Positions 2,589 through 46,781 of a DNA stretch of 64,000 nt are shown here, in pieces. The position numbers and the translations under genes were made by a program. The notes under the pieces were generated by a model, which had not been told where the DNA came from, did not search any database, and was given only the letters and a program-made list of their open reading frames with translations. Location: NCBI GenBank assembly GCA_965221695.1, contig OZ244905.1, forward strand, positions 1,728,001-1,792,000, in the 5' to 3' direction. The number at the start of each line of letters is the position of its first letter. Positions within the stretch are counted from its first letter, which is position 1. The DNA is from Gammaproteobacteria bacterium (lineage in GTDB: Bacteria > Pseudomonadota > Gammaproteobacteria > Eutrophobiales > Eutrophobiaceae).

Positions 2589-2739
2589 GGAACATCTGAT
2601 TATGTCAGATGTTCCTACGATACAAGGATGTATCGGCAAAATCAATGACTGTAAGGCATTGTTTTTATGGGGAAAACAAAAATCACATTTTTGTTTTCCG
2701 TACTCTGACAAGTCCAGGATGGACTTGTTCAGAGTTTCC
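2589..2739. mobile_element. 151-bp MITE-like multi-hairpin element, copy A
   Basis: Ends GGAACATCTGA...TCAGAGTTTCC; near-identical to 25202-25352 and 46631-46781; flanks TACA/TATA; five internal hairpins. Confidence 0.85.
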
Positions 2740-2750
2740 TATATGATACG

Positions 2751-2776
2751 GGATGCCCTGATTTATCAGAGCTTCC
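2751..2776. repeat. Degenerate short palindrome of the same family (GGATGCCCTGA-ttta-TCAGAGCTTCC)
   Basis: Right arm matches the family consensus; left arm is degenerate. Confidence 0.55.
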
Positions 2777-2817
2777 TGAATTTTACGTTCGCTGACTACC
2801 TGCATCGGAGAAAAAAA

Positions 2818-4656
2818 ATGGACCAGGCGCTGGAGATTCTGCGCGCTACTTTTGGATATCGGGACTTTCGCGGCGAGCAACAGCCTATCATCAACCATAT
2901 CATCGCAGGCAACGATGCCTTGGTACTGATGCCGACCGGCGGTGGTAAGTCACTGTGCTACCAGATTCCTGCGATGATCCGTCCCGGCACGGCCATCATC
3001 ATTTCGCCTCTGATTGCCCTGATGCAGGATCAGGTCGGCGCGTTGTTGCAGTTCGGGGTAAGGGCTGCCTACCTCAATTCGACCCTGCCGATACAAACGG
3101 CCCAGGAAACGGAACAGGCGCTGCTGAGTAATGATATAGACCTGCTTTATATTGCGCCGGAACGCTTGCTCCAGGAACGTACCCTGACATTGTTGGAACG
3201 GACACAGCTTGCCCTGTTTGCGATTGACGAGGCGCATTGCGTCTCCCAATGGGGGCATGATTTTCGCAAAGACTACCTGGCGCTGGAACAATTACACCAG
3301 CGCTTTCCGGCAACGCCCCGCATCGCCCTGACCGCGACCGCGGATGAACGGACCCGGCATGAAATTCGGGAACGCCTGGGACTGAAACAGGCAAAAGTGT
3401 TTATCAGCGGGTTTAACCGCCCGAATATCCAGTACCGGATTACGGCCAAGCTGCAAGAACGCAAGCAACTACTGAGTTTCCTGGAGACGGAGCACAAAGG
3501 AGATGCCGGGATCGTCTATTGCCTGTCCCGAAAAAAGACCGAAGCCATTGCTGAATGGTTAAGCCAGCAGGGACGCACAGCCCTGCCCTACCATGCAGGA
3601 CTTGGAACGACCACACGCTCCCGGCACCAGCAACGCTTCCTGCAGGAAGAAGGGGTCATTATCGTCGCCACGATCGCCTTCGGTATGGGTATCGACAAAC
3701 CGGATGTGCGTTTTGTTGCCCACCTGGACCTGCCCAAGAGTATTGAGGCCTATTACCAGGAAACCGGGCGCGCAGGACGGGATGGCAGCGCCGCCGATGC
3801 CTGGATGGTGTATGGGCTGGAAGACGTGGTAAAACTGCGACAAATGCTGGAAATGTCAGATGCGGATGAAAGCCACAAACGGATTGAGAGATATAAACTG
3901 GATTCCATGCTGGGGCTGTGCGAGCTCACCAGTTGCCGGCGTCATGCGTTGTTGCAGTACTTTGGAGAAGAGTCGCCATCCCGTTGTGAAAATTGCGATA
4001 CCTGTCTGCGCCCGGTCGAAACCTGGGACGGCACAACCGCGGCCCGCAAAGCCTTGTCCTGTGTTTACCGCAGCGGCCAGCGTTTTGGCGCCAGGCACCT
4101 CATCGACATACTGCTGGGAAAAGAAAACGACAAAGTGAGAAAGTTTCACCATCAACGGCTGAGCACCTTTGGTATTGGCGAAGAACTGAGCATAGAGCAG
4201 TGGCGCTCCGTGTTCAGACAACTGATTGCGCGGCGTTTTCTGACTGTGGATATGAAAGGTTTTGGTTCCCTGCAACTGACCGAGCTGAGCAGACCGTTAT
4301 TGCAGGGCGAGACGGAAGTTCACTTCCGCAAAGATGAGAAGGTTAAATCAACGCCGCGAAAACAACGTAAATCGCTTGGAGAAGCCGGCGACGCAGCGCT
4401 ACTGGAAAAACTCAAGGCGCATCGGAAGCAGTTGGCTGTGGAGCAGAGCCTGCCGCCTTATGTGATCTTCCATGATACAACCCTGGTCGAAATGGCGCTG
4501 AGTCTGCCTTCCAACCCGGATGAATTGTTACAGGTCAGCGGAGTGGGTGAGCACAAGCTGAAGAAATACGGTGACAGCTTTCTCGCAGTCATTGTATCGC
4601 ACCGGGATGGGCTGTCTGACAAACAAAATGAAGTGAACAGGTCCCGCCAGAGCTAA
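2818..4656 (+). CDS. recQ: ATP-dependent DNA helicase RecQ
   Basis: [35 protein letters not shown], Zn-binding [10 protein letters not shown], and RQC and HRDC domains. Start set at ATG 2818 (GGAG upstream); the longer ORF is read-through of the MITE. Confidence 0.97.
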
Positions 4657-4895
4657 CCCGAAAATCTCACCAATACACTTGTTAGCATTAGATAGATGTT
4701 TGCTGTCAATGAGTTATGATAATCTGCCGAGTATGTTGCCATTACACACTGCGCTTGATGCGCCCTCGCTGGTCTTTTTTGCGTTAGCGGGCACATGCTC
4801 CCTCAACCAGAAGAACCACTATGCTTTCGGTCGCGAGCACCCGCTAACGCAAAAAATCCTCAGCGATCATCGCATCAATTGGTGAGATTTTCGGG
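4657..4895. mobile_element. 239-bp MITE with perfect 18-bp terminal inverted repeats and CTAA target duplication
   Basis: CCCGAAAATCTCACCAAT (4657-4674) / ATTGGTGAGATTTTCGGG (4878-4895); CTAA at 4653-4656 and 4896-4899; long internal hairpin 4755-4878. Confidence 0.85.
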
Positions 4896-5450
4896 CTAAA
4901 AGAAAAAGCCGATCCCTCCACCAAGCATGGTAGTTTCGTCCAGGAGAATTTCCCGCTTGACGATCTCCCAACCGAGTGAGTTCGTCGCGCGCCGCAACAC
5001 ATCTATCTTTTCACCGCTGTAGATATCCTTGAAACGCGTATGCCGCAAGCGGGTTACGATAAAGTACGAGCGTACCCGGTAGGTATCTGCCGCATCCAAT
5101 GGCTCGATCTGCACATTGCTCACGTGATGTCGCAGCATGGAATGGGGTCGCTCGATATGGTCCCGGCCGGTGAGCAATTTGCGCACCCGAAGGCCCATGC
5201 GTTCCTTGTCATCATCAAAATTGGAGCCGCCGAATCCGGCGCTGAAACCCTCGCGCACCTGCTCCTCATAGACGAAGCTGCGCGCAGGCATGTAGTAGTG
5301 TATTTCGTCTGCCAGCAATTCATACCATTGCTCGAACTCGCGGTTGTCGAGCAGGCGCGCCTCGGCATACAGGAATTGCTCGACCTCCCATTGCAGTTCC
5401 GGCGTTACGCTAACAGGAGTATGGACAGGGACTGGTTGCGGATTATTCAT
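4896..5450 (-). CDS. Aromatic ring-hydroxylating dioxygenase beta subunit
   Basis: EVEQFLYAEARLLDNREF..W, H.VSNV, and W.IVKREILLD motifs; directly downstream of the alpha subunit. Confidence 0.92.
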   Translation of the reverse strand: MNNPQPVPVHTPVSVTPELQWEVEQFLYAEARLLDNREFEQWYELLADEIHYYMPARSFVYEEQVREGFSAGFGGSNFDDDKERMGLRVRKLLTGRDHIERPHSMLRHHVSNVQIEPLDAADTYRVRSYFIVTRLRHTRFKDIYSGEKIDVLRRATNSLGWEIVKREILLDETTMLGGGIGFFF

Positions 5451-5482
5451 AAGCGGCTCTCCCGGATAATCTGTTCATATTG

Positions 5483-6817
5483 TCAGTCGGCTAACAACTC
5501 GAGCCAACGCCGGTAAAATCCGCGCAGCGCATACTCGGAATACACGTAGGAAATGTCGCCCGGACCTTCAAAATCGCCCGGATCCACCTGCTCGCCCATC
5601 TGGATATTGAGTTGTGTGCGCGCCGCGACATGGCCCCTGACACCGAGTTGCGCCATTGCCGTGTTCTCGGTGTCGTCCTGCTCCAGGCATCCAGCCACCG
5701 AAAACACCCGGGCCATGGACTTCTGCCAGGCATCTTTGATCTCATCCGGCCAGGCCTTGTCGACAAACAGGTAATTCCATACCTCTGTTTCATCCGGCCC
5801 CCGAGGCTGCCAAAGACGCATATAACCCTGGCCGCGGTTGAAGGTCAGGTTGGGAAAAATATTGGTATGTATGACCGCCATTTTGTCAGTACGGGTATCG
5901 CCCAGGCGATCACGCATGTTCGGCCAGGAGACACCTACCATGTACTCGAACACTTCCTTGGGATGGGTCTGCAACGCCATACCCAGTTCCGCCTCATTGG
6001 GATAGGTCATCCAGCCCGCCCCGTGACCAAGTTTGGGCGACGAATATTGCAGACCGTACTCGGGCTCACCGATCGGCTTCAGCCGGTTAATGTTCGCTTG
6101 CGGAAAATGGACGGAAGAATATGACACATGCGAGACCTGTGCATGGTAAAAATCACTGGCGTGCTGCTCCGCGCCCCACTTCCAGTTACCGCGCAATGTC
6201 CACTTCTGCAAACCAATCAGTTCAATGCCGCCCTCGTCACGGTCCAGTATCGAATCCAGGTACCAGGTGGACTCGCCCAGGTAATCCGTCAACGATGGCG
6301 CGTTCCCGTCCCAGGTAGCGAATATCAGGCCCCGGTAAGTGTCCACCTTGGCAACCTTGTTCAACCCCCACTCCGCCTGCTTGAAATGCTTCTTGGGTTG
6401 TTCCTTGTGGGGCATGCCCAGCAGGCTGCCATCAGTGCCGTAGCACCAGCCGTGGTATGAGCAGGTGAACGACGGCGCATTGCCGTAGTCTCCCCGGCAC
6501 AGCCGCAAACCGCGATGCCGGCATTGGTTCAGCATGACGTGAATCGTATTATCGCGGTGGCGGGTGACGATGACCGGGTCTTCGCCAATGGTCGTGGTGA
6601 AATAATCACCCGGCTTGGGAATCTGGCTATCATGCCCCACACAGATCCAGCACCGGGCAAAAATCCGCTCAAGTTCGCGCCGATACACTGTTTCATCGGT
6701 GTAACAACGGGAATCCTGCGTGCCCGTTTCCGGATCAACCAGGTGAATGATGTGTTCCGGGGACCACTTGTCTTCAAGAGTTTCCCAGCGATTGAAATAT
6801 TCAGGTTGTGCGGCCAT
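5483..6817 (-). CDS. Aromatic ring-hydroxylating dioxygenase alpha subunit (BphA/HcaE-like)
   Basis: Rieske motif CRHRG...CSYHGW; mononuclear iron motif NWK...EQ..SDFYH....H; EQDD. Confidence 0.93.
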   Translation of the reverse strand: MAAQPEYFNRWETLEDKWSPEHIIHLVDPETGTQDSRCYTDETVYRRELERIFARCWICVGHDSQIPKPGDYFTTTIGEDPVIVTRHRDNTIHVMLNQCRHRGLRLCRGDYGNAPSFTCSYHGWCYGTDGSLLGMPHKEQPKKHFKQAEWGLNKVAKVDTYRGLIFATWDGNAPSLTDYLGESTWYLDSILDRDEGGIELIGLQKWTLRGNWKWGAEQHASDFYHAQVSHVSYSSVHFPQANINRLKPIGEPEYGLQYSSPKLGHGAGWMTYPNEAELGMALQTHPKEVFEYMVGVSWPNMRDRLGDTRTDKMAVIHTNIFPNLTFNRGQGYMRLWQPRGPDETEVWNYLFVDKAWPDEIKDAWQKSMARVFSVAGCLEQDDTENTAMAQLGVRGHVAARTQLNIQMGEQVDPGDFEGPGDISYVYSEYALRGFYRRWLELLAD

Positions 6818-7008
6818 GGCAATTACCTTCTATCACAGGTTGACGATATGTAACACTTTACTGGTTACAATACAGAATTCAGAGCAGTAAAAAATATTAA
6901 CCAAAAATTGTTACAAGCTCTGGTTCAAGCGTACTATATTATAATTTGACAGTCTGTCCTTGGCAGTTGGTTTTCATACTATTCGGGACTATATTACATA
7001 ATAGTTAA

Positions 7009-7035
7009 GGAAACTCTGATTAAGTCAGAGGTTGC
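7009..7035. mobile_element. 27-bp ends-only palindromic element with TTAA duplication
   Basis: ttaa|GGAAACTCTGA-ttaag-TCAGAGGTTGC|ttaa. Confidence 0.75.
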
Positions 7036-7046
7036 TTAAATCGAAA

Positions 7047-8765
7047 ATGAAACAAATTTCCATCGTGTTTTGCAGCGTCCTGCTGCTATCCGGATGCGGC
7101 CAATCCGATATCTCTCCTCCACTGGTCGACGGACCCAATCCTTTTGCCGGTACTGACCTGGCCGGAGCGCCCAATATCCTGCTGATTGTTGCCGACGACC
7201 TGGGCTACAGTGATGTCGGCGCCTTCGGTGGCGAGGTCGACACGCCGAACATCAATGCGCTGGCCCGTTCCGGGATCGCTTTTACCAATTTTCATACCGC
7301 CTCAACCTGCGCGCCGACACGGGCCATGCTGTTGAGTGGCGTGGACAACCACCTTGCGGGGTACGGATCGATGCATTTCCTCGCCCCGAACCAACTGGGC
7401 AAACCGGGTTACGAGGACCGCATGAACGAACAGGTGGTCAGCGTCGCCAGGTTGCTGGGAGATGCCGGTTACCGAACCGGCATGGCGGGTAAATGGCATC
7501 TTGGCAACAAGCCGGGACAATGGCCGGTGGACCGCGGCTTTCAGCGCAGTTTTGCATTCGTCGGCGGCATGGACAGACATTTTGGGGGGCACGGTATTCC
7601 GCGGGTGCAATATGTGTCCGACGCCGGCAAGGCTGAAATACCCGATGATTTCTTTTCCACCGATTATTACACGGACCGCCTGATTGAGTTTATCGGCGGG
7701 TCAGATGAGGCCAGTCCGTTCTTCGCGTATGCCGCCTACAGCGCGCCGCACTGGCCGTTGCAGGCGCCTGACGAGTTTATCGAAAAATATGATGGTAACT
7801 ATGACCAGGGCTGGGACAGGTTACGCCGCACACGATTTGAACGCATGCAGGCAATGGGGCTCATCCCCGCGCAGGTGCGTTTCCCACCGCGTCTTGATGA
7901 GGCGCCGGCCTGGGATGATCTCTCCACAGAAGAACAGCGTATCGAAGCCAGGGAAATGGCCGTCTACGCAGCCATGATCGACAATATGGATGTGAACATC
8001 GGGCGCCTGGTTACGCATCTGAAATCCATCGGCAAATACGACAACACCTTGATTATCTTCATGTCGGACAACGGGGCCGATGCCTTCGACCCGTGGATCC
8101 TGCAAGGCCCGATGTTCAGATTGATGACCCTGGGCGCGGACAACAGTCTCGATAACCTGGGCCGGAAAGGCTCCTGGGTGGCATACGGCGCGGGCTGGGC
8201 ACAGGTCAGCGCAACGCCATATAAATTCTACAAATCGGTCGCGAGTGAGGGTGGGATTCGCGCGCCGATGATCATTTCCTACCCGCAGCATTTCAGCAGC
8301 GGCCTGCTAAGCAGCGCATTCACCTCCGTGATGGACATCACGCCCACATTACTGGAAGTTACAGGGATAGAACACCCTGGCAATCACTACCGGGGGCGGG
8401 ACGTTCACCCACCGGACGGCCTCTCGCTGCTACCGGTCCTGAATGGCGCGTCACCCTCCGTACATGACGATAATGAAGGTATCGGTTTTGAGTTGTACGG
8501 CCAGCGCGCCCTGATCGCCGGCGACTGGAAGATAGTAAGTTTGCGCCCGCCGCACGGCAACGCTGAATGGGAGTTGTTCAACATCAGGCAGGACCCGGCA
8601 GAGATGACGAACCTGGCATCCGTGGAACCGGAACGCCTGCAATCCATGATCGATATGTACGAATCCTACAGCCGTGAAAAAGGCATCATCGACCCGCCGC
8701 CGGATTTTGATCCGCTGGACGGCAGCCTGAGGACACTGTTTAAGATGATGCGGGCAATGCGCTGA
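7047..8765 (+). CDS. Arylsulfatase (AtsA-like, Cys-type), lipoprotein
   Basis: Lipobox LLLSGC; PNILLIVADDLG, CAPTR formylglycine motif, GKWHLG, APHWP, SDNG. Confidence 0.92.
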   Translation: MKQISIVFCSVLLLSGCGQSDISPPLVDGPNPFAGTDLAGAPNILLIVADDLGYSDVGAFGGEVDTPNINALARSGIAFTNFHTASTCAPTRAMLLSGVDNHLAGYGSMHFLAPNQLGKPGYEDRMNEQVVSVARLLGDAGYRTGMAGKWHLGNKPGQWPVDRGFQRSFAFVGGMDRHFGGHGIPRVQYVSDAGKAEIPDDFFSTDYYTDRLIEFIGGSDEASPFFAYAAYSAPHWPLQAPDEFIEKYDGNYDQGWDRLRRTRFERMQAMGLIPAQVRFPPRLDEAPAWDDLSTEEQRIEAREMAVYAAMIDNMDVNIGRLVTHLKSIGKYDNTLIIFMSDNGADAFDPWILQGPMFRLMTLGADNSLDNLGRKGSWVAYGAGWAQVSATPYKFYKSVASEGGIRAPMIISYPQHFSSGLLSSAFTSVMDITPTLLEVTGIEHPGNHYRGRDVHPPDGLSLLPVLNGASPSVHDDNEGIGFELYGQRALIAGDWKIVSLRPPHGNAEWELFNIRQDPAEMTNLASVEPERLQSMIDMYESYSREKGIIDPPPDFDPLDGSLRTLFKMMRAMR

Positions 8766-8793
8766 GTTCTTCCCTGGTACGTATTTTCCAGGT

Positions 8794-10212
8794 TCAGCGC
8801 AAAAACACTGCTCTTAATGCCTTAAAGAGCAGATCCCGATATTTCAGAATCAGGCGGTTCTTCGGAAGCCAAGTTGGTGAATGCAGGACGGTTTTGGCTT
8901 TTGAAAAGGTCAAAAATCCCTCATGGCCGTGATAATGCCCAATGCCGGAATTCCCGATGCCGCCAAAGGGGGCGTCATCTGCCATCACATGCATCGCGGT
9001 ATCATTGATGGATACGCCGCCACTATGCGTGTGTTTCAGGATGTGATCTATGACACGGCGATTATTGGACATGATGTACAGAGCCAATGGGCGCGGGCGG
9101 TCATTGATATAAGAAATTACCTGATCAAGATTCTTGTAAACCATTACCGGCAAGATCGAACCAAAGATTTCTTCCTGCAAAACCTTCATCTCCTCAGTCA
9201 CATTGGTAATCAGATGCGGATAGATTAAACGCCCATCACTTTCCTGGTAGTCTTTGACCGCATCAATCTTTGCGCCTTTATTTTCGGCATCTTCCAAAAA
9301 CCCTCTAAGGCGTTCAAACTGTCTGTCAGATACAATATGCGTTTGAGTGTTTTTGTTCCCTCCGGACAGGTGATACTCGGCATATCGCTGCTTAAACGTA
9401 TCCACAAATTCCTGTTCTCTGGTTTGCGGCACAAAAATATAATCCGGCGCAACACAAATTTGCCCTGAATTGGTGGACTTTCCGAGGATTACGGCATCCA
9501 CCGCGATGTTCATGTTGGCATCTTCGGCAATAATCGTTGGAGATTTACCACCCATTTCCAAAGTAACCGGAGTGAGATTATCCGCCGCAGCTTTTGCCAC
9601 AAGTTTACCGACAACAGTTGAGCCTGTGAAAATCAAATGATCAAAGGGGAGCGCAGAAAATGCGGCGCCGGTTTCCGCCTCACCTTCAACAATGATGACG
9701 TGGTCTGAAACATCGTCAACAATCTTGCGCATCACTTGGCCGGCATGGGGGGTGAACTCGCTTAATTTGATCATCACGCGATTTCCTGCTGCGAGCGCTT
9801 GGATAGTCGGGCTGAGCGCAAGAAAAAACGGGAAGTTCCAAGGTGTAATCACTCCCACCACACCCAAAGGCTGGTAATGCACGGTAACGCTTGAAGGTGT
9901 CAGCATCAATCCTGCATGGCGCCTGGAAGGTTTCATCCATTTTTTAAGATGTTTCAGCGCGTAATTCAGCGACATCACACTAGGCAACAGATCCGAAATC
10001 AGGGAATCAAATTCACTGCGATAGCCGTAATCCTGTATCAACGCAGCATACATGGCCTGCTCATTGGCAATCAGGGATTTTTTCAGACGCAACAGAACGT
10101 CTTTACGATCTTTATAACTGGGATATGGCGCGTTGTTAAACGCGGCCTTCATTGCCTCAAAGTCAGCCTGCAACTGTGCTTTGGTGGTAGTTTCTTCTGT
10201 ATATCTCTTCAC
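8794..10212 (-). CDS. Coniferyl-aldehyde-dehydrogenase-like ALDH (class 3-like)
   Basis: YQPLGVVGVITPWNFP, FTGST, LEMGGKSP, NSGQICVAPDY, EEIFG. Confidence 0.88.
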   Translation of the reverse strand: MKRYTEETTTKAQLQADFEAMKAAFNNAPYPSYKDRKDVLLRLKKSLIANEQAMYAALIQDYGYRSEFDSLISDLLPSVMSLNYALKHLKKWMKPSRRHAGLMLTPSSVTVHYQPLGVVGVITPWNFPFFLALSPTIQALAAGNRVMIKLSEFTPHAGQVMRKIVDDVSDHVIIVEGEAETGAAFSALPFDHLIFTGSTVVGKLVAKAAADNLTPVTLEMGGKSPTIIAEDANMNIAVDAVILGKSTNSGQICVAPDYIFVPQTREQEFVDTFKQRYAEYHLSGGNKNTQTHIVSDRQFERLRGFLEDAENKGAKIDAVKDYQESDGRLIYPHLITNVTEEMKVLQEEIFGSILPVMVYKNLDQVISYINDRPRPLALYIMSNNRRVIDHILKHTHSGGVSINDTAMHVMADDAPFGGIGNSGIGHYHGHEGFLTFSKAKTVLHSPTWLPKNRLILKYRDLLFKALRAVFLR

Positions 10213-10231
10213 GGGTTTGCTCGCTCATAAA

Positions 10232-11167: not shown

Positions 11168-11191
11168 TATCAGTTACATTACATTACCAAA

Positions 11192-11228
11192 TGTTGCATA
11201 ATAATAAACTAATTTGTATATTATACAA
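11192..11228. promoter_or_regulatory. Divergent promoter region with perfect palindrome TTGTATA-T-TATACAA (11214-11228) and a TGTTGCATAATA motif
   Basis: Palindrome seen directly; two motifs are shared with 20459-20517. Confidence 0.55.
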
Positions 11229-11263
11229 CATACCACTATCTATATAATCAGGCACACGATCAG

Positions 11264-11578
11264 ATGTCAGGACAATGGCACATTGTAGCCGGTTGTGATG
11301 AAATTGAGGATGGCGACGGCATTGCGGTAGTCATTGAAAATAAGGAAATTGCCGTATTTCGCTGCGGGCGGAATTATTATGCAACAGACAGTTGCTGCAC
11401 CCATGCCAGGGCGCCGCTGGTCGATGGTTATCTCGATGGGCAAATTATCGAATGCCCTCTACACCAGGGAAGATTTAACATCAGCAACGGTAAAGCGTTG
11501 TGTTCACCGGCAACGGTTGACCTGAAAACCTATGCGACCAGGACCGTAAACGGTGAGATACAGGTCAACATTCAATGA
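11264..11578 (+). CDS. Rieske-type ferredoxin (MocE/dioxygenase ferredoxin family)
   Basis: CTH...IECPLHQGRF motif, 104 aa. Confidence 0.92.
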   Translation: MSGQWHIVAGCDEIEDGDGIAVVIENKEIAVFRCGRNYYATDSCCTHARAPLVDGYLDGQIIECPLHQGRFNISNGKALCSPATVDLKTYATRTVNGEIQVNIQ

Positions 11579-11590
11579 AACAGCAGACAA

Positions 11591-12181: not shown

Positions 12182-12184
12182 GTT

Positions 12185-25201: not shown

Positions 25202-25352
25202 GGAAACTCTGACTTAGTCAGAGCTTCCTGCGATACAGGGATGTATCGACAAAATCAGTGACGAAAAGTCATTGATTTTGAGAGCAAAACAAAAATCGCA
25301 TTTTTGTTTTGCGTGCTCTGACAAGTCCAGGATGGACTTGTTCAGAGCTTCC
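25202..25352. mobile_element. 151-bp MITE-like multi-hairpin element, copy B, with CTAA duplication
   Basis: ctaa|GGAAACTCTGA...TCAGAGCTTCC|ctaa; its right end supplies the last codons and stop of hutI. Confidence 0.9.
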
Positions 25353-35645: not shown

Positions 35646-35661
35646 GGGATACCTCCCAGCG

Positions 35662-36978: not shown

Positions 36979-36986
36979 TACAAGAG

Positions 36987-39272
36987 TTACAGACTCTTGG
37001 TTTTGCCCAACTCCAGACGCACCAGGAAAATAAGGAGCAACAACGCGCCCAGCGCAAACACGACATCGCCCGGCACTCTCAGCCAGACCAGCGTTTCCAT
37101 CACTGGCGAATGCAGCAACTCGGGCGAACGCGCATGCCAGTAGCTCTGGTCGAACGAGACTATGGCCTGGATGATGCCTTGTGGCAGTAACGAACCGAAC
37201 ACCATCAGCGCCAGGCCGCCGTTGAACAACCAGAAAACCCAGCGAAGGATACGATCGGACCAGGCGTCTGCCGTTTGGGGCAGATCGCGCCGGCAAAGCA
37301 GCATCAGACCGATACCCAACATGCCGTAAACGCCAAACAGCGCGGCATGGCCATGAGCAGGCGTAGTCATCAGGCCCTGCAGGTAATAAAGTGACAGGGG
37401 CGGATTGATGAGAAAACCGAGCACGCCGGCGCCAACCAGATTCCAGAAAGCGACAGCCAGAAAAAACATCAACGGCAGGTGGTAACGGCTGACCCAGGGG
37501 GCGTGGCGTTCGGCTCGCCAATGATCATGGGCCTCGAAGGCGATTAAAGCCAACGGCACGACTTCAAGAGCCGAGAACACCGCGCCGAGCGCCAGCACGG
37601 CGGCGGGCGTGCCGGCAAAATACAGGTGATGGAAAGTGCCCAACACACCGCCACCCAGAAAAATCATTGCTGAGAACATCACATAAACCGCGGCGGTTTG
37701 TGGCCGCAACAACCGCATATAAACAAACACCCAAGCCACCCATGCGGTGGCAAACACCTCGAACACACCTTCCACCCAGAGATGCACTACCCACCAGCGC
37801 CAGTACTCGGCAATAGTCAGGTGAGTATCTTTTTCATACATCAAACCGGCGCCAAACAACAGGCCGATAGCAGCCGAGGAAAACAGCAGCAGTATGAGCA
37901 GATGCCGGTCTTCATCTCTCCGGTTAATCGCTGGAATAACGCAACGCGCCATCAGCGCCAGCCAGATGAGCAATCCGGCAAAAATGAGTATCTGCCAAAA
38001 GCGTCCCATATCCAGGAACTCGTAGCCTTGGTGACCGAACCAGTACACCAGAGTCGGATCAGTGAGCCGCCCGGTCAGAGCCAACCATTCGCCGACCAGG
38101 GAGCCAAGCGTTGCAATCACCAGCGCAGCCCAAAGAATGTCTACCCCCAACTTCTGACTGGGTGGCTCTATACCAGCGATTAAAGGCGCAAGATACAGTC
38201 CCGCGCCAAGCCAGGCCGTCGCAATCCAAAGCACCGCCAATTGAACATGCCAGGTGCGAGTCAACGCATACGGCGCGACATCCGCCAGCGGAAAGCCGTA
38301 AAACTCATGGCCTTCCACAGCATAATGCGCGGTAATGGCGCCCAGCACAATCTGTAAACCCAGCAAGGCCGCTACCACCCAGATGTATTTCACGACAGCT
38401 CGCATGGAGGCGGTAGGTTGAGCGGCGCTGATGGGACTGACTTCGTCCGCTCCGGCAAGCGGTTCGGTATCTTTACTCCATTCCTCGCGTTCTCTCAAAA
38501 AGAACCAACATAACGCGCCAATGCCCGCGATCAGCAATACGACGGAAATAAATGTCCAGATGAAAATAACCGCGTCGGGCTTGTTCCCCACCAGTGGCTC
38601 GTGAGGCCAGTTATTGGTATAGGAGACGTTATCATCCGGGCGCAAAGTCGCCGCGGCCCAGGCCGTCCACCACCACCATGACACCAGCGCGCGAATATCT
38701 TCATCCGGATTGGGCCCCAACGGTGAGTTCGGAATGGCAAAGGCCTCGCGCAACTTTTCCGCCTCAGGCCCGTCGCCAGCGCCGCCGAATAATGCCAGGT
38801 AATGGGGGATAATGGTCTCAATCGCCTGCGCTCTTTGCTGGGATATGATGATGCGATCCGTCTCCGAATCGTAGGTGTTGATGCGCAGGCGGGTGGCAAA
38901 TTCTGCAACCCGCGCGGCGCGCTCCGGTTCAGTCAGCAACGCGAAATCCCCATTGGCATCCAACATCGCCAGCGCTTCCCGATGCAGCACATCGGCCGTC
39001 CAGTCCGGCGCCAGGTAACTGCCGTGGCCCCACACTGAACCCAACTCCATACCACCCAGGCGCCGCCATACATCCCGTCCCCTATGGATGTCAGCCTCGG
39101 AAAATACCACGTTCGTTACGCCTTCGCTAATCGTTACAACCTGGTCAGGCATGGGAGGCGCCTGCTGGAACGCCCTGCCGCCGACAAACAGCAGGATGCT
39201 GAACATCAGGATCAGAGAAACAGCGAATAACGTCCAGAGTCTTCGGAAGGTAAAAATCTCGCGGTAGTTCAT
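36987..39272 (-). CDS. norZ: Quinol-dependent nitric oxide reductase (qNor)
   Basis: GSVWGHGSYLAPDWTAD, YTNNWP, WRWWVVHLWVEG.FE, GTFHHLY, HGHAALFGVYG, R.PGD; 761-aa single subunit. Confidence 0.95.
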   Translation of the reverse strand: MNYREIFTFRRLWTLFAVSLILMFSILLFVGGRAFQQAPPMPDQVVTISEGVTNVVFSEADIHRGRDVWRRLGGMELGSVWGHGSYLAPDWTADVLHREALAMLDANGDFALLTEPERAARVAEFATRLRINTYDSETDRIIISQQRAQAIETIIPHYLALFGGAGDGPEAEKLREAFAIPNSPLGPNPDEDIRALVSWWWWTAWAAATLRPDDNVSYTNNWPHEPLVGNKPDAVIFIWTFISVVLLIAGIGALCWFFLREREEWSKDTEPLAGADEVSPISAAQPTASMRAVVKYIWVVAALLGLQIVLGAITAHYAVEGHEFYGFPLADVAPYALTRTWHVQLAVLWIATAWLGAGLYLAPLIAGIEPPSQKLGVDILWAALVIATLGSLVGEWLALTGRLTDPTLVYWFGHQGYEFLDMGRFWQILIFAGLLIWLALMARCVIPAINRRDEDRHLLILLLFSSAAIGLLFGAGLMYEKDTHLTIAEYWRWWVVHLWVEGVFEVFATAWVAWVFVYMRLLRPQTAAVYVMFSAMIFLGGGVLGTFHHLYFAGTPAAVLALGAVFSALEVVPLALIAFEAHDHWRAERHAPWVSRYHLPLMFFLAVAFWNLVGAGVLGFLINPPLSLYYLQGLMTTPAHGHAALFGVYGMLGIGLMLLCRRDLPQTADAWSDRILRWVFWLFNGGLALMVFGSLLPQGIIQAIVSFDQSYWHARSPELLHSPVMETLVWLRVPGDVVFALGALLLLIFLVRLELGKTKSL

Positions 39273-39331
39273 GGCGTTACCTCGGTTTTGCCTGATTTCA
39301 GGATGATACTAACGATTATACTGACAATGAA

Positions 39332-39345
39332 TTGATGAAAGTCAA
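39332..39345. promoter_or_regulatory. FNR/DNR/NnrR-type box upstream of qNor
   Basis: TTGAT-gaaa-GTCAA, one mismatch to TTGAT-N4-ATCAA, centred about 30 bp upstream of a TATCAT -10 element (39308-39303, minus strand), matching class II geometry. Confidence 0.7.
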
Positions 39346-39367
39346 ATTTTACTCCGCATTATTCTCT

Positions 39368-39394
39368 GGAAGCTCTGACTTAATCAGAGTTTCC
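39368..39394. mobile_element. 27-bp ends-only palindromic element with CTCT duplication
   Basis: ctct|GGAAGCTCTGA-cttaa-TCAGAGTTTCC|ctct. Confidence 0.78.
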
Positions 39395-39612
39395 CTCTGT
39401 TGTAATAACGGGCTGAGCATACGGGCGAGACGCTCGCGAACCCGGGGAGAGGGGGATGACACACACCATTTCCTGGAAAACAGGGAGCGAACAATATTCG
39501 ATCCGACCCACACTCCCGTGCCTGTGGCGCCATACTGGCTTTTTCCAAGCAACTGCATTATCTTGTTTCACAATGGCGCGCTTCTTTTTTTATCAAAAAT
39601 AATCAGCTAACG

Positions 39613-40503
39613 ATGACGTTTCAACAATTGATTGTCGCCCTGCAACAGTTTTGGTCTGAGCAGGGCTGTGTCATACAACAACCCTATGATATGGAAGTTG
39701 GCGCCGGCACTTTTCATCCGGCCACTTTTCTGCGCGCGATCGGTCCGGAGCCCTGGAATACCGCATACGCGCAACCTTCCAGGCGTCCCGCGGATGGTCG
39801 TTATGGTGAAAATCCGAACCGTCTTCAGCGTTATTACCAGTTCCAGACACTGCTGAAGCCTTCGCCGCCTGATATCCAGGAACTCTACCTGGCTTCACTA
39901 CGACATCTCGGGATTGACACGCTGACCCATGACGTAAGATTCATCGAAGATAATTGGGAATCGCCCACCCTCGGCGCTTGGGGTCTGGGCTGGGAAGTGT
40001 GGCTGAACGGTATGGAGATCAGCCAGTTCACTTACTTTCAACAGGTTGGGGGATTGGAGTGCAGGCCGGTTTCAGGTGAAATTACCTACGGTCTGGAGCG
40101 AATCGCTGTGTACCTGCAGAATGTTGATAGCGTCTACGATCTGGTCTGGGTTAACGGGCAAGATGGCCCCGTGACCTATGGCGATATCCATCACCAGGAT
40201 GAAGTGGAATTGTCAACCTACAATTTCGAGAAGGCGGACACTCAAGCTTTGTTTCGCTGGTTTGATGAATGCGAGTCGCAATGCATGAAGCTGATTGAGG
40301 ATGACCTGCCCCTGCCCGCTTATGAACTGGTACTCAAGGCATCGCATATCTTCAATCTGCTGGATGCCAGACACGCTATCAGCGTGACCGAAAGGCAACG
40401 TTTCATACTCAGAGTCAGAACCACGGCGCGCGCGGTTGCGCGCAGTTATTTCGACAAGAGGGAAAAACTGGGATTTCCATTGTGCGCAAACAAGACTTAC
40501 TGA
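39613..40503 (+). CDS. glyQ: Glycine--tRNA ligase alpha subunit
   Basis: [49 protein letters not shown]. Confidence 0.98.
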
Positions 40504-42548
40504 TCGAAATAGGGACGGAAGAATTGCCGCCAAAGTCGCTGACCCGACTGGCGTCCTCACTGGCTGAAGCTATCGCCCAGGGTCTGCAGGAAAAGGCCCT
40601 TGACCATGGAGATTATTCATGGCACGCCACCCCGCGCCGGCTTGCCGTCATTGTGAAAGAGCTTGCGGATGCCCAGGCAGACAAAGAATCAGTAAAACGC
40701 GGACCGGCCCTGGCGTCTGCCTATGATCAAGCAGGCAATCCTACCCGGGCCGCGCAGGGGTTTGCCCGCGCCTGTGGCGTAGAGGTTTCAGACCTTGATA
40801 TCCTGGAAACAGACAAAGGCAGTTGGCTGTCTTATCGCCACCTTGCCAAGGGAGCCAGAGCAGAACAACTGCTACCCGAAATCATCGCCCGGGCCCTGGC
40901 TGGATTGCCCATATCAAGACGCATGCGCTGGGGTGACGGCGACATCGAGTTTGTCCGACCCGTCCATTGGGTGGTCCTGTTGTTCGGAAAAGATATTATC
41001 CCGGCAACAATCCTGGGAACGGAAACAGGCCGGGAAACCCGCGGGCATCGTTTTCATCATCCGGCATCAATAGCCCTGGCCTGCCCTGACGAATACCTGG
41101 GAAAACTGCAAAAACCGGGACATGTTATAGCCGATTTCAGGGAGAGAAAAAAACAAATCAGACAAGCTGTGACAGAACTGGCGCAGACTGTTGGCAGAAG
41201 CGCATTGATTGATGATAATTTGCTGGATGAAGTGACCGCGCTGGTGGAATGGCCTGTGGCTATCGCCGGCTCGTTTGATGATGAGTTTCTTGAATTACCG
41301 AGGGAGGCGCTGATCGCCAGCATGCAGTCGCACCAGAAATACTTTCCCGTCTTGCGCCAGGATAACCGCGAGCTGACTGCTGATTTTATTTTCATAGCCA
41401 ATATCGACAGCGCCTCCCCGGATGCAATCAAGCGCGGGAACGAACGGGTCATCCGCCCGCGTCTGAGCGACGCTGCGTTTTTCTGGGAACGGGACCGCAA
41501 CCAATCCCTGGAAAGTTTTTCAACAAAACTGGACAAGGTCATCTTTGAACAACAGTTGGGGACTCTTGGGGACAAAGCCGCGCGGGTTGAACAACTCGGG
41601 GCATATATAGCGGAGCAACTTGGATTTGAAACCAGCTTGGCTGTGCGCGCTGCGCAACTGGCGAAATGTGACCTGATAAGCGATATGGTTGGCGAGTTTC
41701 CGGAACTGCAGGGAATAATGGGGCGTTATTATGCGCTGGAGTCCAATGAGCATCCGGAAGTGGCCAGAGCGCTGGAAGAACAGTATATGCCACGATATGC
41801 CGGCGCCGACTTGCCGGAAACTGATACTGGTATGGCCCTTGCGTTGGCCGACAAACTGGATACGCTGACAGGAATTTTTGCCATCGGCAAGGCGCCCACT
41901 GGCGACAAGGATCCCTTTGGCTTGCGCCGCGCGGCCCTGGGGTGTTTGCGCATCATGATAGAACGCGAGTTGCCCCTGGACCTGGAGGCTTGTCTAACGT
42001 ATTCAGCCGACAGATTTCCGGATTCGGTCAAGGCTGCCACCACGGTCTCCAAGGTATTTGATTTCATGCTGGACAGGTTGCGGCGTTATTATCTTGATAA
42101 TGGTGTAAATCCGGCAGTGTTCGATGCGACGCTGGCATGCCGCCCGGTCCGACCCCATGATTTCCACCTAAGGACACTGGCAGTAAGCGAATTTCTGCGC
42201 TTGCCGGAAGCGGCCAGCCTGGTGACGGCCAACAAACGCATCAGAAACATTCTTAAACAAGCGCAGTACTCCGGCAAATCCCAACCGGATGAAACGCTGC
42301 TTATTGAAAAAACGGAGCGAGAGCTATATCAGCAAATAAATTCGCCCGGTATACTGGCACATGAGTCTTCCGACGATTACATTGCCCGGCTGACCGCGCT
42401 GGCGGGCCTGAGAGATTACGTGGATGCTTTTTTTGATGAGGTAATGGTCTTGTGCGAGGACGAAACCTTGAGGAATAACCGCCTCGCCCTGTTGAACCAA
42501 TTGCGCCAATTGTTCCTGGCTACCGCGGACATTTCAAGACTGCAATGA
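40482..42548 (+). CDS. glyS: Glycine--tRNA ligase beta subunit
   Basis: [50 protein letters not shown]. Confidence 0.97.
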
Positions 42549-43081
42549 AACTGGCTATACTCGACATGGACGGCGTGATTAACCATGATTCCGATGACTA
42601 TATCAAGTCGGAACAAGAATGGATTCCAATTCCCGGCAGCCTGCAAGCCATAGCCAGGCTTAACCAACAGGGTTATCACATTGTCATCGCCACCAATCAA
42701 TCCGGGCTGGCCAGGGGCAAGCTAACTCTGAATGAGTTGAACAGGATTCATAGGAAAATGCATATCCATCTCGCCCAATACGGCGGCGAGATAGATGCTA
42801 TTTTCTTTTGCCCGCATGGTCCTGACGAGGGCTGTGTCTGCCGTAAACCTAAACCAGGACTACTAAAAGAGATAGAGAGAAGGTTACACACATTGCTACC
42901 CGGTGTGCCTGTTATCGGCGATCGGTTGAGCGATATCCAGGCGGCTCAGGCAGTCAAAGCAAGTCCGATTCTAGTAAGGACAGGGAAGGGACAAACACAA
43001 CTGGATGAAGGTCTGATCCCGGACGGTATTCCCTGCTATGACGATCTTGCCCAGGCTACGACCGCGCTGCTTTCCGGTTGA
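42545..43081 (+). CDS. gmhB: D-glycero-beta-D-manno-heptose 1,7-bisphosphate 7-phosphatase
   Basis: D.DGVIN, TNQSG, CPH.P...C.CRKPKPG, GD; conserved position after glyS. Confidence 0.92.
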   Translation: MKLAILDMDGVINHDSDDYIKSEQEWIPIPGSLQAIARLNQQGYHIVIATNQSGLARGKLTLNELNRIHRKMHIHLAQYGGEIDAIFFCPHGPDEGCVCRKPKPGLLKEIERRLHTLLPGVPVIGDRLSDIQAAQAVKASPILVRTGKGQTQLDEGLIPDGIPCYDDLAQATTALLSG

Positions 43082-43230
43082 CCCGGATTTTTCACAAACT
43101 GATGTGATGACAAATCGCCAGGATAACGATTTTCACGGCGACAACCGCGCGAAGAGTTACTCACAGCAACGCGCGCAATGAAAGCCGAGAATTTCTTCTG
43201 CCCCACGGGTTGCGCGCAGGAAAACGCGCA

Positions 43231-43983
43231 ATGAATCCGCCGAACGGGACAACCTTATCCATCTGGATAGGCTCGTCAATGTTCCTGCTGGGAATGGTCA
43301 TCTCTACCCTCATCGCGGTCCCTATCACATTTTTCCTTCTGGCTGTGCCCTTCCCGCTCAGGTTTCGACTGGTCGCAAACTGGGCCAGGTTCAACCTGTG
43401 GTGGTTGGGAATTACCTGCAGGATCAAAGCCGAGGTGCAGGGTCTCGAACATATCGCCGACCGACCCGCAATCATCATGTGCAAACACCAGTCCGCGTGG
43501 GAAACCCTGATGATTCAATTATTGTTCCCCCCGCAGGTGTGGTTATTGAAACGCGAACTGTTACGCATCCCTATCTATGGCTGGGGACTCGCTACGATGA
43601 AACCCATCGCTATCGACCGTTCCCTGGGTCTGCGGGCGCTGAGGCAACTCGTGCGTCAGGGCAGGGAACGCCTGGATTCCGGCTTGTGGGTCGTGGTGTT
43701 CCCGGAAGGCACCCGGCTGCCTCCGGGCGCGCGGCAAAAATACCACCCTGGCGGCGCGTTGCTGGCAGAGAAATCCGGTTATCCGGTTATTCCGATAGCG
43801 CATAACGCCGGCTACCTGTGGCCGCGCAACAGTTTTCTTAAACGGCCCGGAACAATACAGATGGTGATCGGTCAGCCCATTCAATCCAAGGGCAAGAAAT
43901 CCGCACAAATCCTGCGTGAAACCGAGGACTGGATTGAGACTACCGTCGCGACCCTGCCGGCGCCGGTTGGCATGAAGCCATGA
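43231..43983 (+). CDS. plsC: 1-acyl-sn-glycerol-3-phosphate acyltransferase
   Basis: KHQSAWET, FPEGTR, conserved glyQS-gmhB-plsC synteny. Confidence 0.88.
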   Translation: MNPPNGTTLSIWIGSSMFLLGMVISTLIAVPITFFLLAVPFPLRFRLVANWARFNLWWLGITCRIKAEVQGLEHIADRPAIIMCKHQSAWETLMIQLLFPPQVWLLKRELLRIPIYGWGLATMKPIAIDRSLGLRALRQLVRQGRERLDSGLWVVVFPEGTRLPPGARQKYHPGGALLAEKSGYPVIPIAHNAGYLWPRNSFLKRPGTIQMVIGQPIQSKGKKSAQILRETEDWIETTVATLPAPVGMKP

Positions 43984-44795
43984 ATAACAAGCCAATAAAA
44001 GACGGTGAGTACCTCAGCACACTGGCCAGAGGTCTGTCCGTATTGCGGACGTTTACCAGGGACAACCCGGAAATGACTCTCAGCGAGGTTGCCGCAGCAA
44101 CGAACCTGAACCCCGCGGTAGCCAGGCGTTGCCTGAATACCCTGGTTGAACTCGGTTATGTGGGGAAAAGAGGCAAGTTGTTCCTGTTAACCCCTGAGGT
44201 AATGGGTTTTGCATCGGCGTTCCTGGAATCGGTAAACCTGGAGGAAATCGCCCGTCCGTACCTCCAGGATGTTCGGGACAGCACCGGGGACAGTTCATCA
44301 CTGGCTGTACTGTCTCACCAGGACATCCTGTACCTGGTTCATGTCTCGACCAATCGCATGATCAGGCTTGATGCAGGGATCGGTACCCGCTTCCCGGCAT
44401 ACGCAACGTCTCTTGGCCGGGTCATCATTGCACACCAGTCCGAAGCCTTTATCGAAGACTATCTTGCCGGCATTGAACCGCGCAAACTGACCGACAAGAC
44501 GATTATCTCCAGGACGAGGCTCCGGCAAATCCTGAATAAGTGCCGGCGCCAGGGTTTCACCTCCACACAGGATGAACTTGACTACGGAATCATATCCGTA
44601 GCCGTGCCGGTATTTGACAATGAAGGTGAAATACTCGCCGCGATAAACTGTTCAACCGCAACTACCCGCGTCAACCAGGAAAAGATGATCGAGACCCGTC
44701 TGCCTCACCTCAAGATGGCAGCAAAGAAAATTGAGCAGGAGCTGCGCCGCTATCCTATTCTTGCGCACTCGATCAGGGCCGCGTCATTCCGCTGA
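43980..44795 (+). CDS. IclR-family regulator (PcaR/PobR-like)
   Basis: LARGLSVL...MTLSEVA...ARRCLNTL; G.RFPAYATSLGRV; DELDYG. Confidence 0.9.
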   Translation: MNNKPIKDGEYLSTLARGLSVLRTFTRDNPEMTLSEVAAATNLNPAVARRCLNTLVELGYVGKRGKLFLLTPEVMGFASAFLESVNLEEIARPYLQDVRDSTGDSSSLAVLSHQDILYLVHVSTNRMIRLDAGIGTRFPAYATSLGRVIIAHQSEAFIEDYLAGIEPRKLTDKTIISRTRLRQILNKCRRQGFTSTQDELDYGIISVAVPVFDNEGEILAAINCSTATTRVNQEKMIETRLPHLKMAAKKIEQELRRYPILAHSIRAASFR

Positions 44796-44807
44796 AGGAA
44801 CCTTGAA

Positions 44808-44837
44808 GTAACCTCTGAGATTAAGTCCAGAGCTTCC
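44808..44837. mobile_element. 30-bp ends-only palindromic element with TGAA duplication
   Basis: tgaa|GTAACCTCTGA-gattaagt-CCAGAGCTTCC|tgaa. Confidence 0.68.
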
Positions 44838-44841
44838 TGAA

Positions 44842-45663
44842 TTACAGCGGCGCCCTTGAGAACTGCGTTGAATCCACGCCGGCGCAAAATCGCAGTATCT
44901 GTTCGTTATACAACGCAGGTTCGGTGAGGTTGCTCATGTGTCCGCTATGTTCGAGGATAACCTCACGGCTATCCGAGATTATCTCAAGGAGTTTTTTTGC
45001 ATGCGCTCTCAGGCGGACAGTTTCCTGTGCGCCGGTAAGGATAAGCGTGGGAGCATAGAACCGCGCCAGTTCCCCAAGAACATCCAGAGAAGTGGAAAAT
45101 TTATCCGGCGAGAAGTCAAGCAAATCGGCGCCACTGTAATCACCCACTATTTCGTTGAGTAACCGCTGCTTGTTGTCATGTCCCGACCCCAATGCCAGGA
45201 TTGGATGCTTGAGCCAGCGCCGGCGCATCTCATCGATTTTTCCGGCGCGCACAAGCTCCGCATAGTCAAAAAAGGGAATGTTTTCGCGCTCAGGTCCGGC
45301 AATATCCAAGCCGTCGACCACTGCGCCCTGTAGAACCAAAGAACGCAGTCGCTGCGGCCTGGTTACGGCATAACGCAACGCGAGGCGTCCCCCCTGGGAC
45401 ATGCCCAACAGGTGCAGTGTGCCCAATGACAACGCATCTGCGATTCTGTCCACGTCATCAAGTTCCAGGTCCAGGTCCGGAGGCAGCTTGGAGCGGCCAA
45501 ACCCGCGCCGATCATAGCTGATAACGCGAAAGCGCTCACTGAGGCTGGGCAACTGTGGCTCAAACATACGGTGGTCCAGGGTCCAGCCGTGCATAAATAG
45601 CAACGGCGTACCCTCTCCCGCTTGCTTCAGGTACAGCCTGCCTCCGCTGACGTCAATCCACAT
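44842..45663 (-). CDS. Alpha/beta hydrolase (enol-lactone hydrolase-like)
   Basis: FMHGW, YDRRGFG, GMSQGG, SGH. Confidence 0.85.
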   Translation of the reverse strand: MWIDVSGGRLYLKQAGEGTPLLFMHGWTLDHRMFEPQLPSLSERFRVISYDRRGFGRSKLPPDLDLELDDVDRIADALSLGTLHLLGMSQGGRLALRYAVTRPQRLRSLVLQGAVVDGLDIAGPERENIPFFDYAELVRAGKIDEMRRRWLKHPILALGSGHDNKQRLLNEIVGDYSGADLLDFSPDKFSTSLDVLGELARFYAPTLILTGAQETVRLRAHAKKLLEIISDSREVILEHSGHMSNLTEPALYNEQILRFCAGVDSTQFSRAPL

Positions 45664-45678
45664 GATAGAGCAACCGGG

Positions 45679-46443
45679 TCAGCGCGGCGCGCGGATATTT
45701 TTTCGGGCATCGACCCACAAATCGTGCGCGATCGGGTTGTTCATCTCCTCAAACAGGTGGCCCACCAGGCCCGCGCATCGGGCAGTAAGCACCACTCCGC
45801 GCATCATGGCTGACGGCACACCGGCCTCTGCAAGGGCCGCCGCGATAGCAGCGCTGACATTGGTGACCAGGGTCTTGTTCAGAACCTCCTGCAAACAAGA
45901 TTCGAGCGTACTCAGGGCTTTGACATATTCGCCGCCAACTCCCGTCTCCGCGACTATTTCCAGTAGCCTCTCGACACGCGGGTCCTTGCCATGGTGAATT
46001 GGGTGGCCGAAACCGGGCACCGGCCGCCGTATTTGCCGATACGATTTGATTTTCTCCAGCGCTACCGTTTTCCTTTCCGGTTCAGACGCAGCGACGACTG
46101 CCTCCAGCAGCGCGCCGCATTCGCCCGCCGTGCCCGCATAACGGTCTCCTACTCCCAGCAAGCCGGCTACCACCGCGCCCTGGAAAGATTCCGGTGCGCC
46201 GTAATGGGTCAGCCTGGTGGCCAACGCAGAAGGCACCAGACCATGCTCCATGATGGTCACCATCACCGCGTCGACGATGCGACATTGACTCGCGGTGGGT
46301 TCCTCTCCGAGCGCCTGCAACAGGAACAGCTCCGTGAACGAATACTTGCCCATTATGTCGTTCACGAGATTTTTCCCGCGAATCAATATGTTGTCTGCGT
46401 CAAACCCGCATATGGCCGTTGCCGGAGACGCTTTGTCAGTCAC
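45679..46443 (-). CDS. Citryl-CoA lyase / citrate synthase-like protein
   Basis: IRGKNL, EHGLVPS, VPGFGHP.H...DPR, R.AGLVGH. Confidence 0.85.
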   Translation of the reverse strand: MTDKASPATAICGFDADNILIRGKNLVNDIMGKYSFTELFLLQALGEEPTASQCRIVDAVMVTIMEHGLVPSALATRLTHYGAPESFQGAVVAGLLGVGDRYAGTAGECGALLEAVVAASEPERKTVALEKIKSYRQIRRPVPGFGHPIHHGKDPRVERLLEIVAETGVGGEYVKALSTLESCLQEVLNKTLVTNVSAAIAAALAEAGVPSAMMRGVVLTARCAGLVGHLFEEMNNPIAHDLWVDARKNIRAPR

Positions 46444-46500
46444 AGGCGCTTCCCCCTGTTGTGGTTATAGCAATAGAAAAATAACTATAACATGATTGCA

Positions 46501-46626
46501 GGAACCTCTGAAAATCCCGTCTTTAGCTTTTTTGTCGGTGCACCATCAACCGCTGCGATATTTTCGATAATCGAACTTGACTTCGGAATACGAAAATTGT
46601 AGTATTGCCCGAAAATGATGATGATC
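46501..46626. mobile_element. Lone element end (GGAACCTCTGAAAA...), possible IS5-like remnant adjoining MITE copy C
   Basis: Same 11-bp end as the MITE family; the minus-strand frame reads ...KKLKTGFSEVP into this end. Confidence 0.4.
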
Positions 46627-46630
46627 TTAA

Positions 46631-46781
46631 GGAACCTCTGATTAAGACAGAGGTTCCTACGATACAAGGATGTATCGTCAATATCAATGACTGTAAGGCA
46701 TTGATATTGTGAGGAAAATAAAAATCACATTTTTGTTTTCCGTACTCTGACAAGTCTAGGATGGACTTGTTCAGAGTTTCC
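46631..46781. mobile_element. 151-bp MITE-like multi-hairpin element, copy C, with TTAA duplication
   Basis: ttaa|GGAACCTCTGA...TCAGAGTTTCC|ttaa. Confidence 0.9.

Follow-up and report, generated by a model that had tools for sequence, protein, structure and literature searches.

CsrA/RsmA is a master post-transcriptional regulator, and its known antagonists are, to our knowledge, a few dedicated small RNA (sRNA) genes. Bacterial genomes also contain abundant intergenic repeats, such as ERIC, Correia (NEMIS), and REP/BIME, which are co-transcribed, fold into RNA hairpins, and can affect mRNAs in an orientation-dependent manner; Correia elements duplicate TA, while REPs have no target duplication and depend on RAYT. 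We know of no ERIC, Correia, or REP sequence that carries CsrA consensus loops, and literature searches found none. The window analyzed here, a 64,000-nucleotide stretch (C1:1728001-1792000) of a gammaproteobacterial genome assembled as a single contig (3.54 Mb, 55% G+C, 96.85% complete), contains three copies of a 151-bp miniature inverted-repeat transposable element (MITE) with GGA motifs in its predicted hairpin loops. The nearest precedent seen is that of the E. coli rrA/rrB/rrF RNAs, which derive from repeats at the ends of three rRNA operons and are transcribed by read-through; their loops contain GGA motifs, on which their binding of CsrA in vitro depends (PMC8144298). Like the present element, they are repeated, intergenic, GGA-loop sequences; unlike it, they are three fixed copies, with no transposon, terminal repeats, or duplications, and their sequence is unrelated.

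The element shares with IS5-family MITEs a short, non-coding, multi-copy sequence, IS5-type terminal repeats, a 4-bp YTAR/TTAA duplication, and an empty site in a relative. Yet, its interior is unrelated to that of the parent insertion sequence (IS), and a conserved multi-hairpin cargo persists while the terminal repeats change. With CsrB/CsrC/RsmX/Y/Z/V (Rfam clan CL00106), it has in common GGA motifs in hairpin loops, a csrA gene in the genome, and, in its long forms, four to five motifs. Unlike the CsrB/RsmY/Z sponges, however, the standard copy has two sites, with no promoter or terminator of its own found, and unlike the Csr/Rsm sponges, which are encoded by one to three genes, the element is dispersed in approximately 100 mobile copies. 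Its ends and target also differ from those generally described for ERIC, Correia, and REP. In a full-text literature search, no paper emerged on CsrA sites in a MITE or other repeat, and none on zetaproteobacterial MITEs; in PMC4383904, the co-occurrence of the terms is incidental. Rfam at gathering thresholds gave nothing in the window, so that no match to an already catalogued family emerged there. A classical Csr sponge was not found in the genome either: RF00018 had no match, and RF00166 and RF00195 reached 14.3 and 20 bits against cut-offs of 44 and 57. The RsmY-like match to RF00195 was rejected as the end of a cold-shock-like open reading frame (ORF) outside the element, and a GGA-dense non-coding window at about C1:2479365 was set aside because, by eye, it resembles the start of an addiction-module gene. 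A GacA-box pattern had no match in the genome.

The element can be classed with firm confidence as an IS5-family MITE whose multi-hairpin fold is selected. The three copies, all on the + strand, were confirmed with the positions and flanks given in the initial annotation (Table 1), as was their placement in the recQ leader, after hutF, and before a VOC-like ORF. When the three copies were used as blastn queries, 222 places in the genome were matched, including 86 full-length copies (44 on the + and 42 on the − strand; 66 exactly 151 bp long), which is far more than the three originally claimed and far beyond chance. Identical 4-bp flanks surround 64 of the 86 copies, and 49 of these flanks are of the YTAR type (33 TTAA, 7 CTAA, 7 TTAG, and 2 CTAG), which is the 4-bp target duplication rule of the IS5 family. 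The proposed 11-bp inverted ends are indeed inverted repeats of the GGAACCTCTGA type, but they are imperfect (10 of 11).

A search for an IS5-family transposase with matching ends was successful in genomes of the same genus. The IS at L123:781-1929 (1149 bp) has ends that match the MITE, is flanked by TTAA on both sides, and encodes an intact transposase of 313 amino acids (NF033581, IS5 family transposase, 315.5 bits with a cut-off of 140; PF01609, 96.7 bits; PF05598, 69.7 bits). The second IS, at L115:1282-2432, possesses an exact 16-bp terminal repeat beginning GGAACCTCTGA, and its transposase frame is split. Read by eye, 17 of 19 positions at the right end of the MITE are identical to those of the IS end. 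The genome under study gave no match to PF01609 and a single DUF772 remnant; the sole trace of a mobilizer in it is a remnant of the parent transposase at C1:1594572-1594655, which comprises approximately 100 bp of the 5′ part of the gene (29 amino acids, 83% identical, start codon lost). The search for empty sites in relatives was likewise positive, since the site of copy 2 is empty in the sister species G008, where flanks of 96–99% identity adjoin each other and GTGA stands in place of CTAA-element-CTAA. G008 carries the element at the sites orthologous to copies 1 and 3. In contigs of four DNA runs aligned to 19 kb that include three copies, the breaks fall at the repeats, and no clean empty-site joint was seen. 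REP/REPIN mobilization via RAYT was ruled out by the 4-bp duplications and by the lack of a Y1/RAYT transposase (PF01797) in this genome at its 96.85% completeness. Collectively, the same-end IS with its TTAA duplication, the YTAR duplications, and the empty site bear out the proposed IS5-mobilized MITE. The element is non-autonomous and was probably moved in trans into TTAA/YTAR sites by an IS5-family DDE transposase that is now missing from the genome.

The predicted RNA fold of copy 3 agrees with the five consecutive hairpins that had been described (−67.9 kcal/mol, z −9.98, 0 of 200 shuffles equal), and its complement also folds (−62.0 kcal/mol, z −10.81). Hairpins 1 and 5 are built of terminal-repeat copies; each end is a hairpin formed by the terminal repeat and its inverted copy, with a conserved hairpin cargo between the ends. 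The compensatory stem pairs quoted in the initial annotation were all found in the three copies, and the covariation of the stems holds well beyond them. Among the 86 copies of this genome, 165 cells of compensatory double change were counted; pair 52-76, for example, is AT in 43 copies and TA in 39, and pair 84-110 is GC in 52, CG in 22, and TA in 4. In a set of 83 distinct copies from many genomes, both sides had changed in 25 of 61 pairs, with 294 cells, 94.7% of them paired, whereas slid controls did not exceed 19 pairs and 67 cells and none of 500 shuffles was as high. This set was gathered partly by an exact hairpin-5 word, and hairpin 5 is therefore invariant in it by ascertainment. Across 41 sequences of different genera and families, both sides had changed in 58 of 61 pairs (401 cells), and the covariation score was 0.410, compared with at most 0.168 in slid controls (at most 165 cells) and with 0 of 500 shuffles as high. 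Pairing in the stems is thus under selection.

The two strands are not equivalent in this respect. Folding energy favors the + strand, which bears GGA, in 28 of the 30 lineage representatives, with a mean difference of −5.6 kcal/mol, and in 66 of 85 copies of this genome, and G-U cells outnumber A-C cells by 196 to 49, or by 106 to 47 when the two apical pairs are left out. The lower energy of the + strand and the G-U excess point to a single-stranded + molecule, most simply RNA, and it is likely that + strand RNA is the selected molecule. Two structural candidates were rejected. A GNRA tetraloop in hairpin 3 does not hold, since the loop is GTAA, GCAA, CTAA, TCAA, or GATAA depending on the lineage, and pairing of the hairpin-2 loop with the UUUCC tail in a pseudoknot is contradicted by lineages with other ends, which lack the UCC tail and keep GGA.

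The CsrA/RsmE consensus 5'-A/UCANGGANGU/A-3' and the SELEX (systematic evolution of ligands by exponential enrichment) consensus RUACARGGAUGU are given in PMC6849547. In each of the three window copies, hairpin 2 fits both of these consensus sequences and contains the ATACA(A/G)GGATGT noticed initially; the CAGGATG motif reported for hairpin 5 is present in copies 1 and 2, whereas copy 3 has TAGGATG. Over 31 lineages, column conservation is 0.98 for the hairpin-2 GGA, 0.93 for the flanking ACA..GU, and 0.81 for the hairpin-5 GGA, as against 0.67 for the terminal hairpin 1, 0.59–0.73 for the other stems, 0.74 for N41, and 0.58 for N37. The expectation that the GGA loops would be preferentially conserved is therefore borne out. 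In the alignment of 41 rows, the only invariant column is the A of the hairpin-2 GGA, and C35, A36, G38, G39, and G42 are each at least 90% conserved. Conservation is thus highest for the letters CA-N-GGA-N-G of the hairpin-2 loop, in which both N positions vary, as they do in the CsrA/RsmE consensus, and this is the case even where the terminal repeats differ. The + strand contains the word CANGGANG in 27 of 31 lineages; the − strand contains it in none of the 31. Ascertainment by the covariance model of the element (R1) should account for little of this conservation, as a match lacking GGA would drop only a few of its 50–150 bits.

The two sites of the standard copy are in hairpins 2 and 5. 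Predicted loops contain two or more GGA motifs in 22 of the 31 lineage representatives, and the insert hairpins of the long forms again have GGA loops, e.g., CUGGAG. At the genome scale, 96 of the 103 RUACARGGAUGU sites lie inside the element, always on its + strand, and 6 in other intergenic DNA; for the looser pattern WCANGGANGW, 103 of 710 sites lie inside it, again always on the + strand, and 77 in other intergenic DNA. Hairpin 2 could also be viewed as a palindromic operator for a dimeric DNA-binding protein, since it is an inverted repeat with a 4-bp spacer. This reading is highly improbable: the arms covary freely and the spacer is fixed, which is the reverse of what an operator predicts, and the strand asymmetry in folding also argues against it.

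The genome has a single intact csrA gene (91 amino acids; PF02599, 90 bits) downstream of an aspartate-kinase-like gene, which answers the question of whether the putative partner is encoded at all. In the phylum-wide sample described below, csrA was found in all 25 element-positive genomes and in 82 of 126 element-negative ones (Fisher p 1.5e-4), and within family f167 in 20 of 20 and 8 of 16, respectively (Fisher p 4e-4), with p-values that are overstated because kin are non-independent. The csrA ORF at L076:1381-1656 (− strand) encodes 91 amino acids with an acidic C-terminal extension; the usual CsrA length is approximately 61 amino acids. In the mechanism proposed, the + strand would be transcribed within neighboring transcripts, and the cargo would then present the two GGA loops of hairpins 2 and 5 in the form bound by CsrA/RsmA dimers. 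Each transcribed copy would bind CsrA, and the bound CsrA would either bring the neighboring gene under Csr control or be titrated by the sum of about 100 copies. The earlier proposal of CsrA-binding RNA modules thus stands at the sequence level, where the consensus letters are the best conserved over 41 lineages and csrA is present, and does not extend beyond that level. On these grounds, it is plausible, at slightly less than an even chance, that the element binds CsrA and thereby matters to the cell.

The element is found far outside this genome. With blastn, it was detected in 16 of 22 genomes of the same genus and in a few others. R1 detected it in 31 of 151 genomes of a class sample with one genome per family, and in 25 of 151 genomes of a phylum-wide sample, including 20 of 36 members of family f167, which belongs to another class. 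One of the 31 class positives, also one row of the lineage set, is the unpublished genome G165, and no conclusion rests on G165 alone. Full elements were further found in records titled Mariprofundus and Zetaproteobacteria (word search followed by R1) and in two metagenome-assembled genomes (MAGs) of Desulfarculaceae (R1). The hairpin-2 word also matches MAGs titled Pseudomonadales, Chromatiales, Sedimenticolaceae, Thiotrichales, Lysobacterales, and others, and among uncultured Gammaproteobacteria the family is abundant in those from marine, sponge-associated, and groundwater settings. Clostridia MAGs (Borkfalkia and others, loci L367-L418) were rejected as carriers, as they contain in multiple copies a 22-base hairpin-4-like word only, and R1 finds no element there. 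Divergent lineages have other terminal repeats, in which all four arms have changed together, while hairpins 2, 3, 4, and 5 are kept.

Several points weigh against a selected, CsrA-binding RNA. Stems in quasi-palindromes could also be restored by template switching, with no need for selection; the G-U excess among rare stem mismatches of the copies in this genome is not significant (49 vs. 39, p 0.34); and the copies are related, so that kin are non-independent in all counts. The copies in this genome are also very young, with 100 rare substitutions in 73 copies, and within-genome conservation is therefore uninformative about function or constraint after insertion; the private substitutions are too few for a test of post-insertion constraint on the loops. 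The element by itself reaches no more than 22 bits (STnc250) and 12 bits (RsmV) against Rfam, far below cut-off, and Rfam 15 contains no such family. In the class sample, csrA does not follow the element (26 of 31 positives vs. 97 of 120 negatives; Fisher p 0.8), the five positives with no csrA match being MAGs of 62–90% completeness. With regard to expression, a search around copies 1 and 3 gave no stem-plus-T-run terminator, and no promoter belonging to the element was found besides weak promoter-like sites. A search of sequencing runs listed none with RNA covering the locus, a gap that does not itself count as evidence. Of the 86 copies, 42 are in tandem, 29 in divergent, and 15 in convergent contexts, a distribution that fits random intergenic YTAR insertion (chi-square p 0.66), and there is thus no enrichment in leaders. 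Finally, where the genes on both sides of a copy are co-directional in this genome, 29 copies have the GGA strand antisense to them and 13 have it sense (p 0.02), on any replication strand, and in near relatives the ratio is 22 to 7, some of these insertions being possibly orthologous. Five distant lineages gave 15 antisense and 19 sense copies, a heterogeneous result (6:1 and 5:1 in favor of sense in two lineages, 3:8 in another).

This orientation makes the suggested role as a widely used portable control cassette in mRNAs a poor fit, as the GGA strand is mostly antisense in this genus. The bias could mean that selection removes sense copies on account of an active + RNA, or that the + RNA is rarely made; a replication-strand bias was rejected (42 vs. 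44). The sole promoter-like site inside the element is weak, lies on the − strand, and reads outward through hairpin 1. In copy 3, a sigma-70-like site with TTGATA, 17 nt, and TATCGT (9 of 12 positions) is located at 46659-46687 on the − strand, and such a site might bear on the orientation bias. The gene calls come from a home-made ORF caller that is imperfect and missed the VOC-like ORF.

Orientation biases of this kind, which point to effects at the transcript level, also agree with an element that would act in cis at the RNA level by a means other than CsrA, as is known for ERIC, REP, and Correia repeats, for instance as an mRNA 3′ stabilizer, an RNase processing site, or a weak terminator, with the GGA loops being read by another factor or acting as Shine-Dalgarno mimics. 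The strong multi-hairpin fold on both strands is compatible with such a role, and so is the location of 27 of 64 classifiable copies between convergent genes in the five distant lineages. Nevertheless, this alternative is unlikely, given the lack of a terminator around copies 1 and 3 and given that it leaves unexplained both the conservation of CA-N-GGA-N-G and the GGA loops of the added modules.

A purely selfish MITE is doubtful as a full account but deserves serious consideration. The hairpins would then stem from the terminal-repeat palindromes of which the element was built and would be kept for transposition or by mutational correction of palindromes, and the GGA motifs would be relics of the founder that have no host partner. 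Several features agree with this: the construction of hairpins 1 and 5 from terminal-repeat copies, the youth of the copies in this genome, their apparently random intergenic YTAR contexts, and the loss of the transposase, with a function in situ not visible. To these can be added approximately 175 solo palindromes of 27–31 bp, equal to hairpin 1, which resemble deletion products. They are flanked most often by TTAA/TTAA (23 of 175), and many have mixed flanks; their loops occur in both orientations (TTAAG in 31 and CTTAA in 31); and a 29-bp variant matches full copies starting GGAACCTCTGAGAT. They could be deletion products, similar to solo long terminal repeats, arising between the direct repeats 17–27 and 141–151, or they could be the smallest mobile units. 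DDE transposases, however, require only the element ends, and a selfish element does not predict a cargo motif that is conserved above those ends (0.98 vs. 0.67) and survives their replacement, or a GGA that stays constant while the N positions vary. The folding asymmetry between strands is likewise unexpected from double-stranded DNA or from palindrome correction.

Besides the standard form, the genome contains 13 short forms of approximately 80 bp, which retain hairpins 1, 2, and 5, and 6 long forms of approximately 223 bp, in which a 72-bp insert is placed after hairpin 2. A second, longer intergenic repeat with GC-rich hairpins has the first 49 nt of this insert in common; it lies outside the window near C1 positions 39516, 2083258, 2798633, 2832421, 2919467, 3195502, and 3247046, with one in L136, shows flanking similarity over approximately 250 bp as judged by eye, and has no match in Rfam. 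Three full copies (G000:C1:829216, 1981516, and 2265281) have identical 12-bp flanks on both sides and hence sit within a larger repeated segment.

The features of the family in the window are collected in Table 1. The RecQ model match begins at residue 97 of the long ORF beside copy 1. The hutI ORF stops 11 nt inside the right end of copy 2 (25342-25352); in 6 of the 86 copies, a flanking ORF enters the element and stops at a TGA in the terminal repeat, 11 nt in, and in several others the TAA stop of the flanking gene is the TTAA target itself.

Table 1. Copies of the element, hairpins of copy 3, and adjoining features, in window coordinates
Feature	Position	Strand	Remarks
MITE copy 1, 151 bp	2589..2739	+	Between aldehyde dehydrogenase gene (−) and recQ (+); flanks TACA/TATA; R1 161 bits
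MITE copy 2, 151 bp	25202..25352	+	Convergent hutF/hutI spacer; CTAA/CTAA target duplication; R1 166 bits
MITE copy 3, 151 bp	46631..46781	+	45 nt upstream of VOC-like ORF; TTAA/TTAA target duplication; R1 168 bits
Hairpin 1, copy 3	46631..46657	+	Left terminal repeat, then directly its inverted copy
Hairpin 2, copy 3	46659..46678	+	Loop AGGA; GGA at 46668-46670; ATACAAGGATGT
Hairpin 3, copy 3	46679..46709	+	Variable sequence; pairing kept via compensatory changes
Hairpin 4, copy 3	46713..46741	+	A/U-rich stem; loop region conserved
Hairpin 5, copy 3	46744..46777	+	Inverted copy of right terminal repeat plus the repeat itself; GGA loop at 46759-46761
Solo palindrome, hairpin 1 only, 27 bp	39368..39394		Same family; flanks CTCT/CTCT
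VOC-like ORF, 180 amino acids	46827-47369	+	VOC-like as read by eye, without a library scan

A broader interpretation can be offered tentatively. The element may belong to an old, cross-phylum family of mobile CsrA decoys in which the selected unit is the RNA cargo, with at least two ideal CsrA hairpins, and not the transposon ends. Such a cargo would be carried by several IS5-type ends in Gammaproteobacteria, Zetaproteobacteria, and Desulfarculaceae, and bursts of copying would add or remove most of the high-affinity CsrA sites of a genome (here, 96 of 103 perfect SELEX-type sites). If this is true, transposition retunes a global post-transcriptional regulator and places new genes under CsrA. 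By multiplying ideal CsrA sites, such a transposon would open a new route by which the Csr network evolves or is tuned, and the family would be a clear case of a bacterial MITE conserved in its cargo and not in its ends. Its presence in records titled Mariprofundus isolates makes the element amenable to bench testing.

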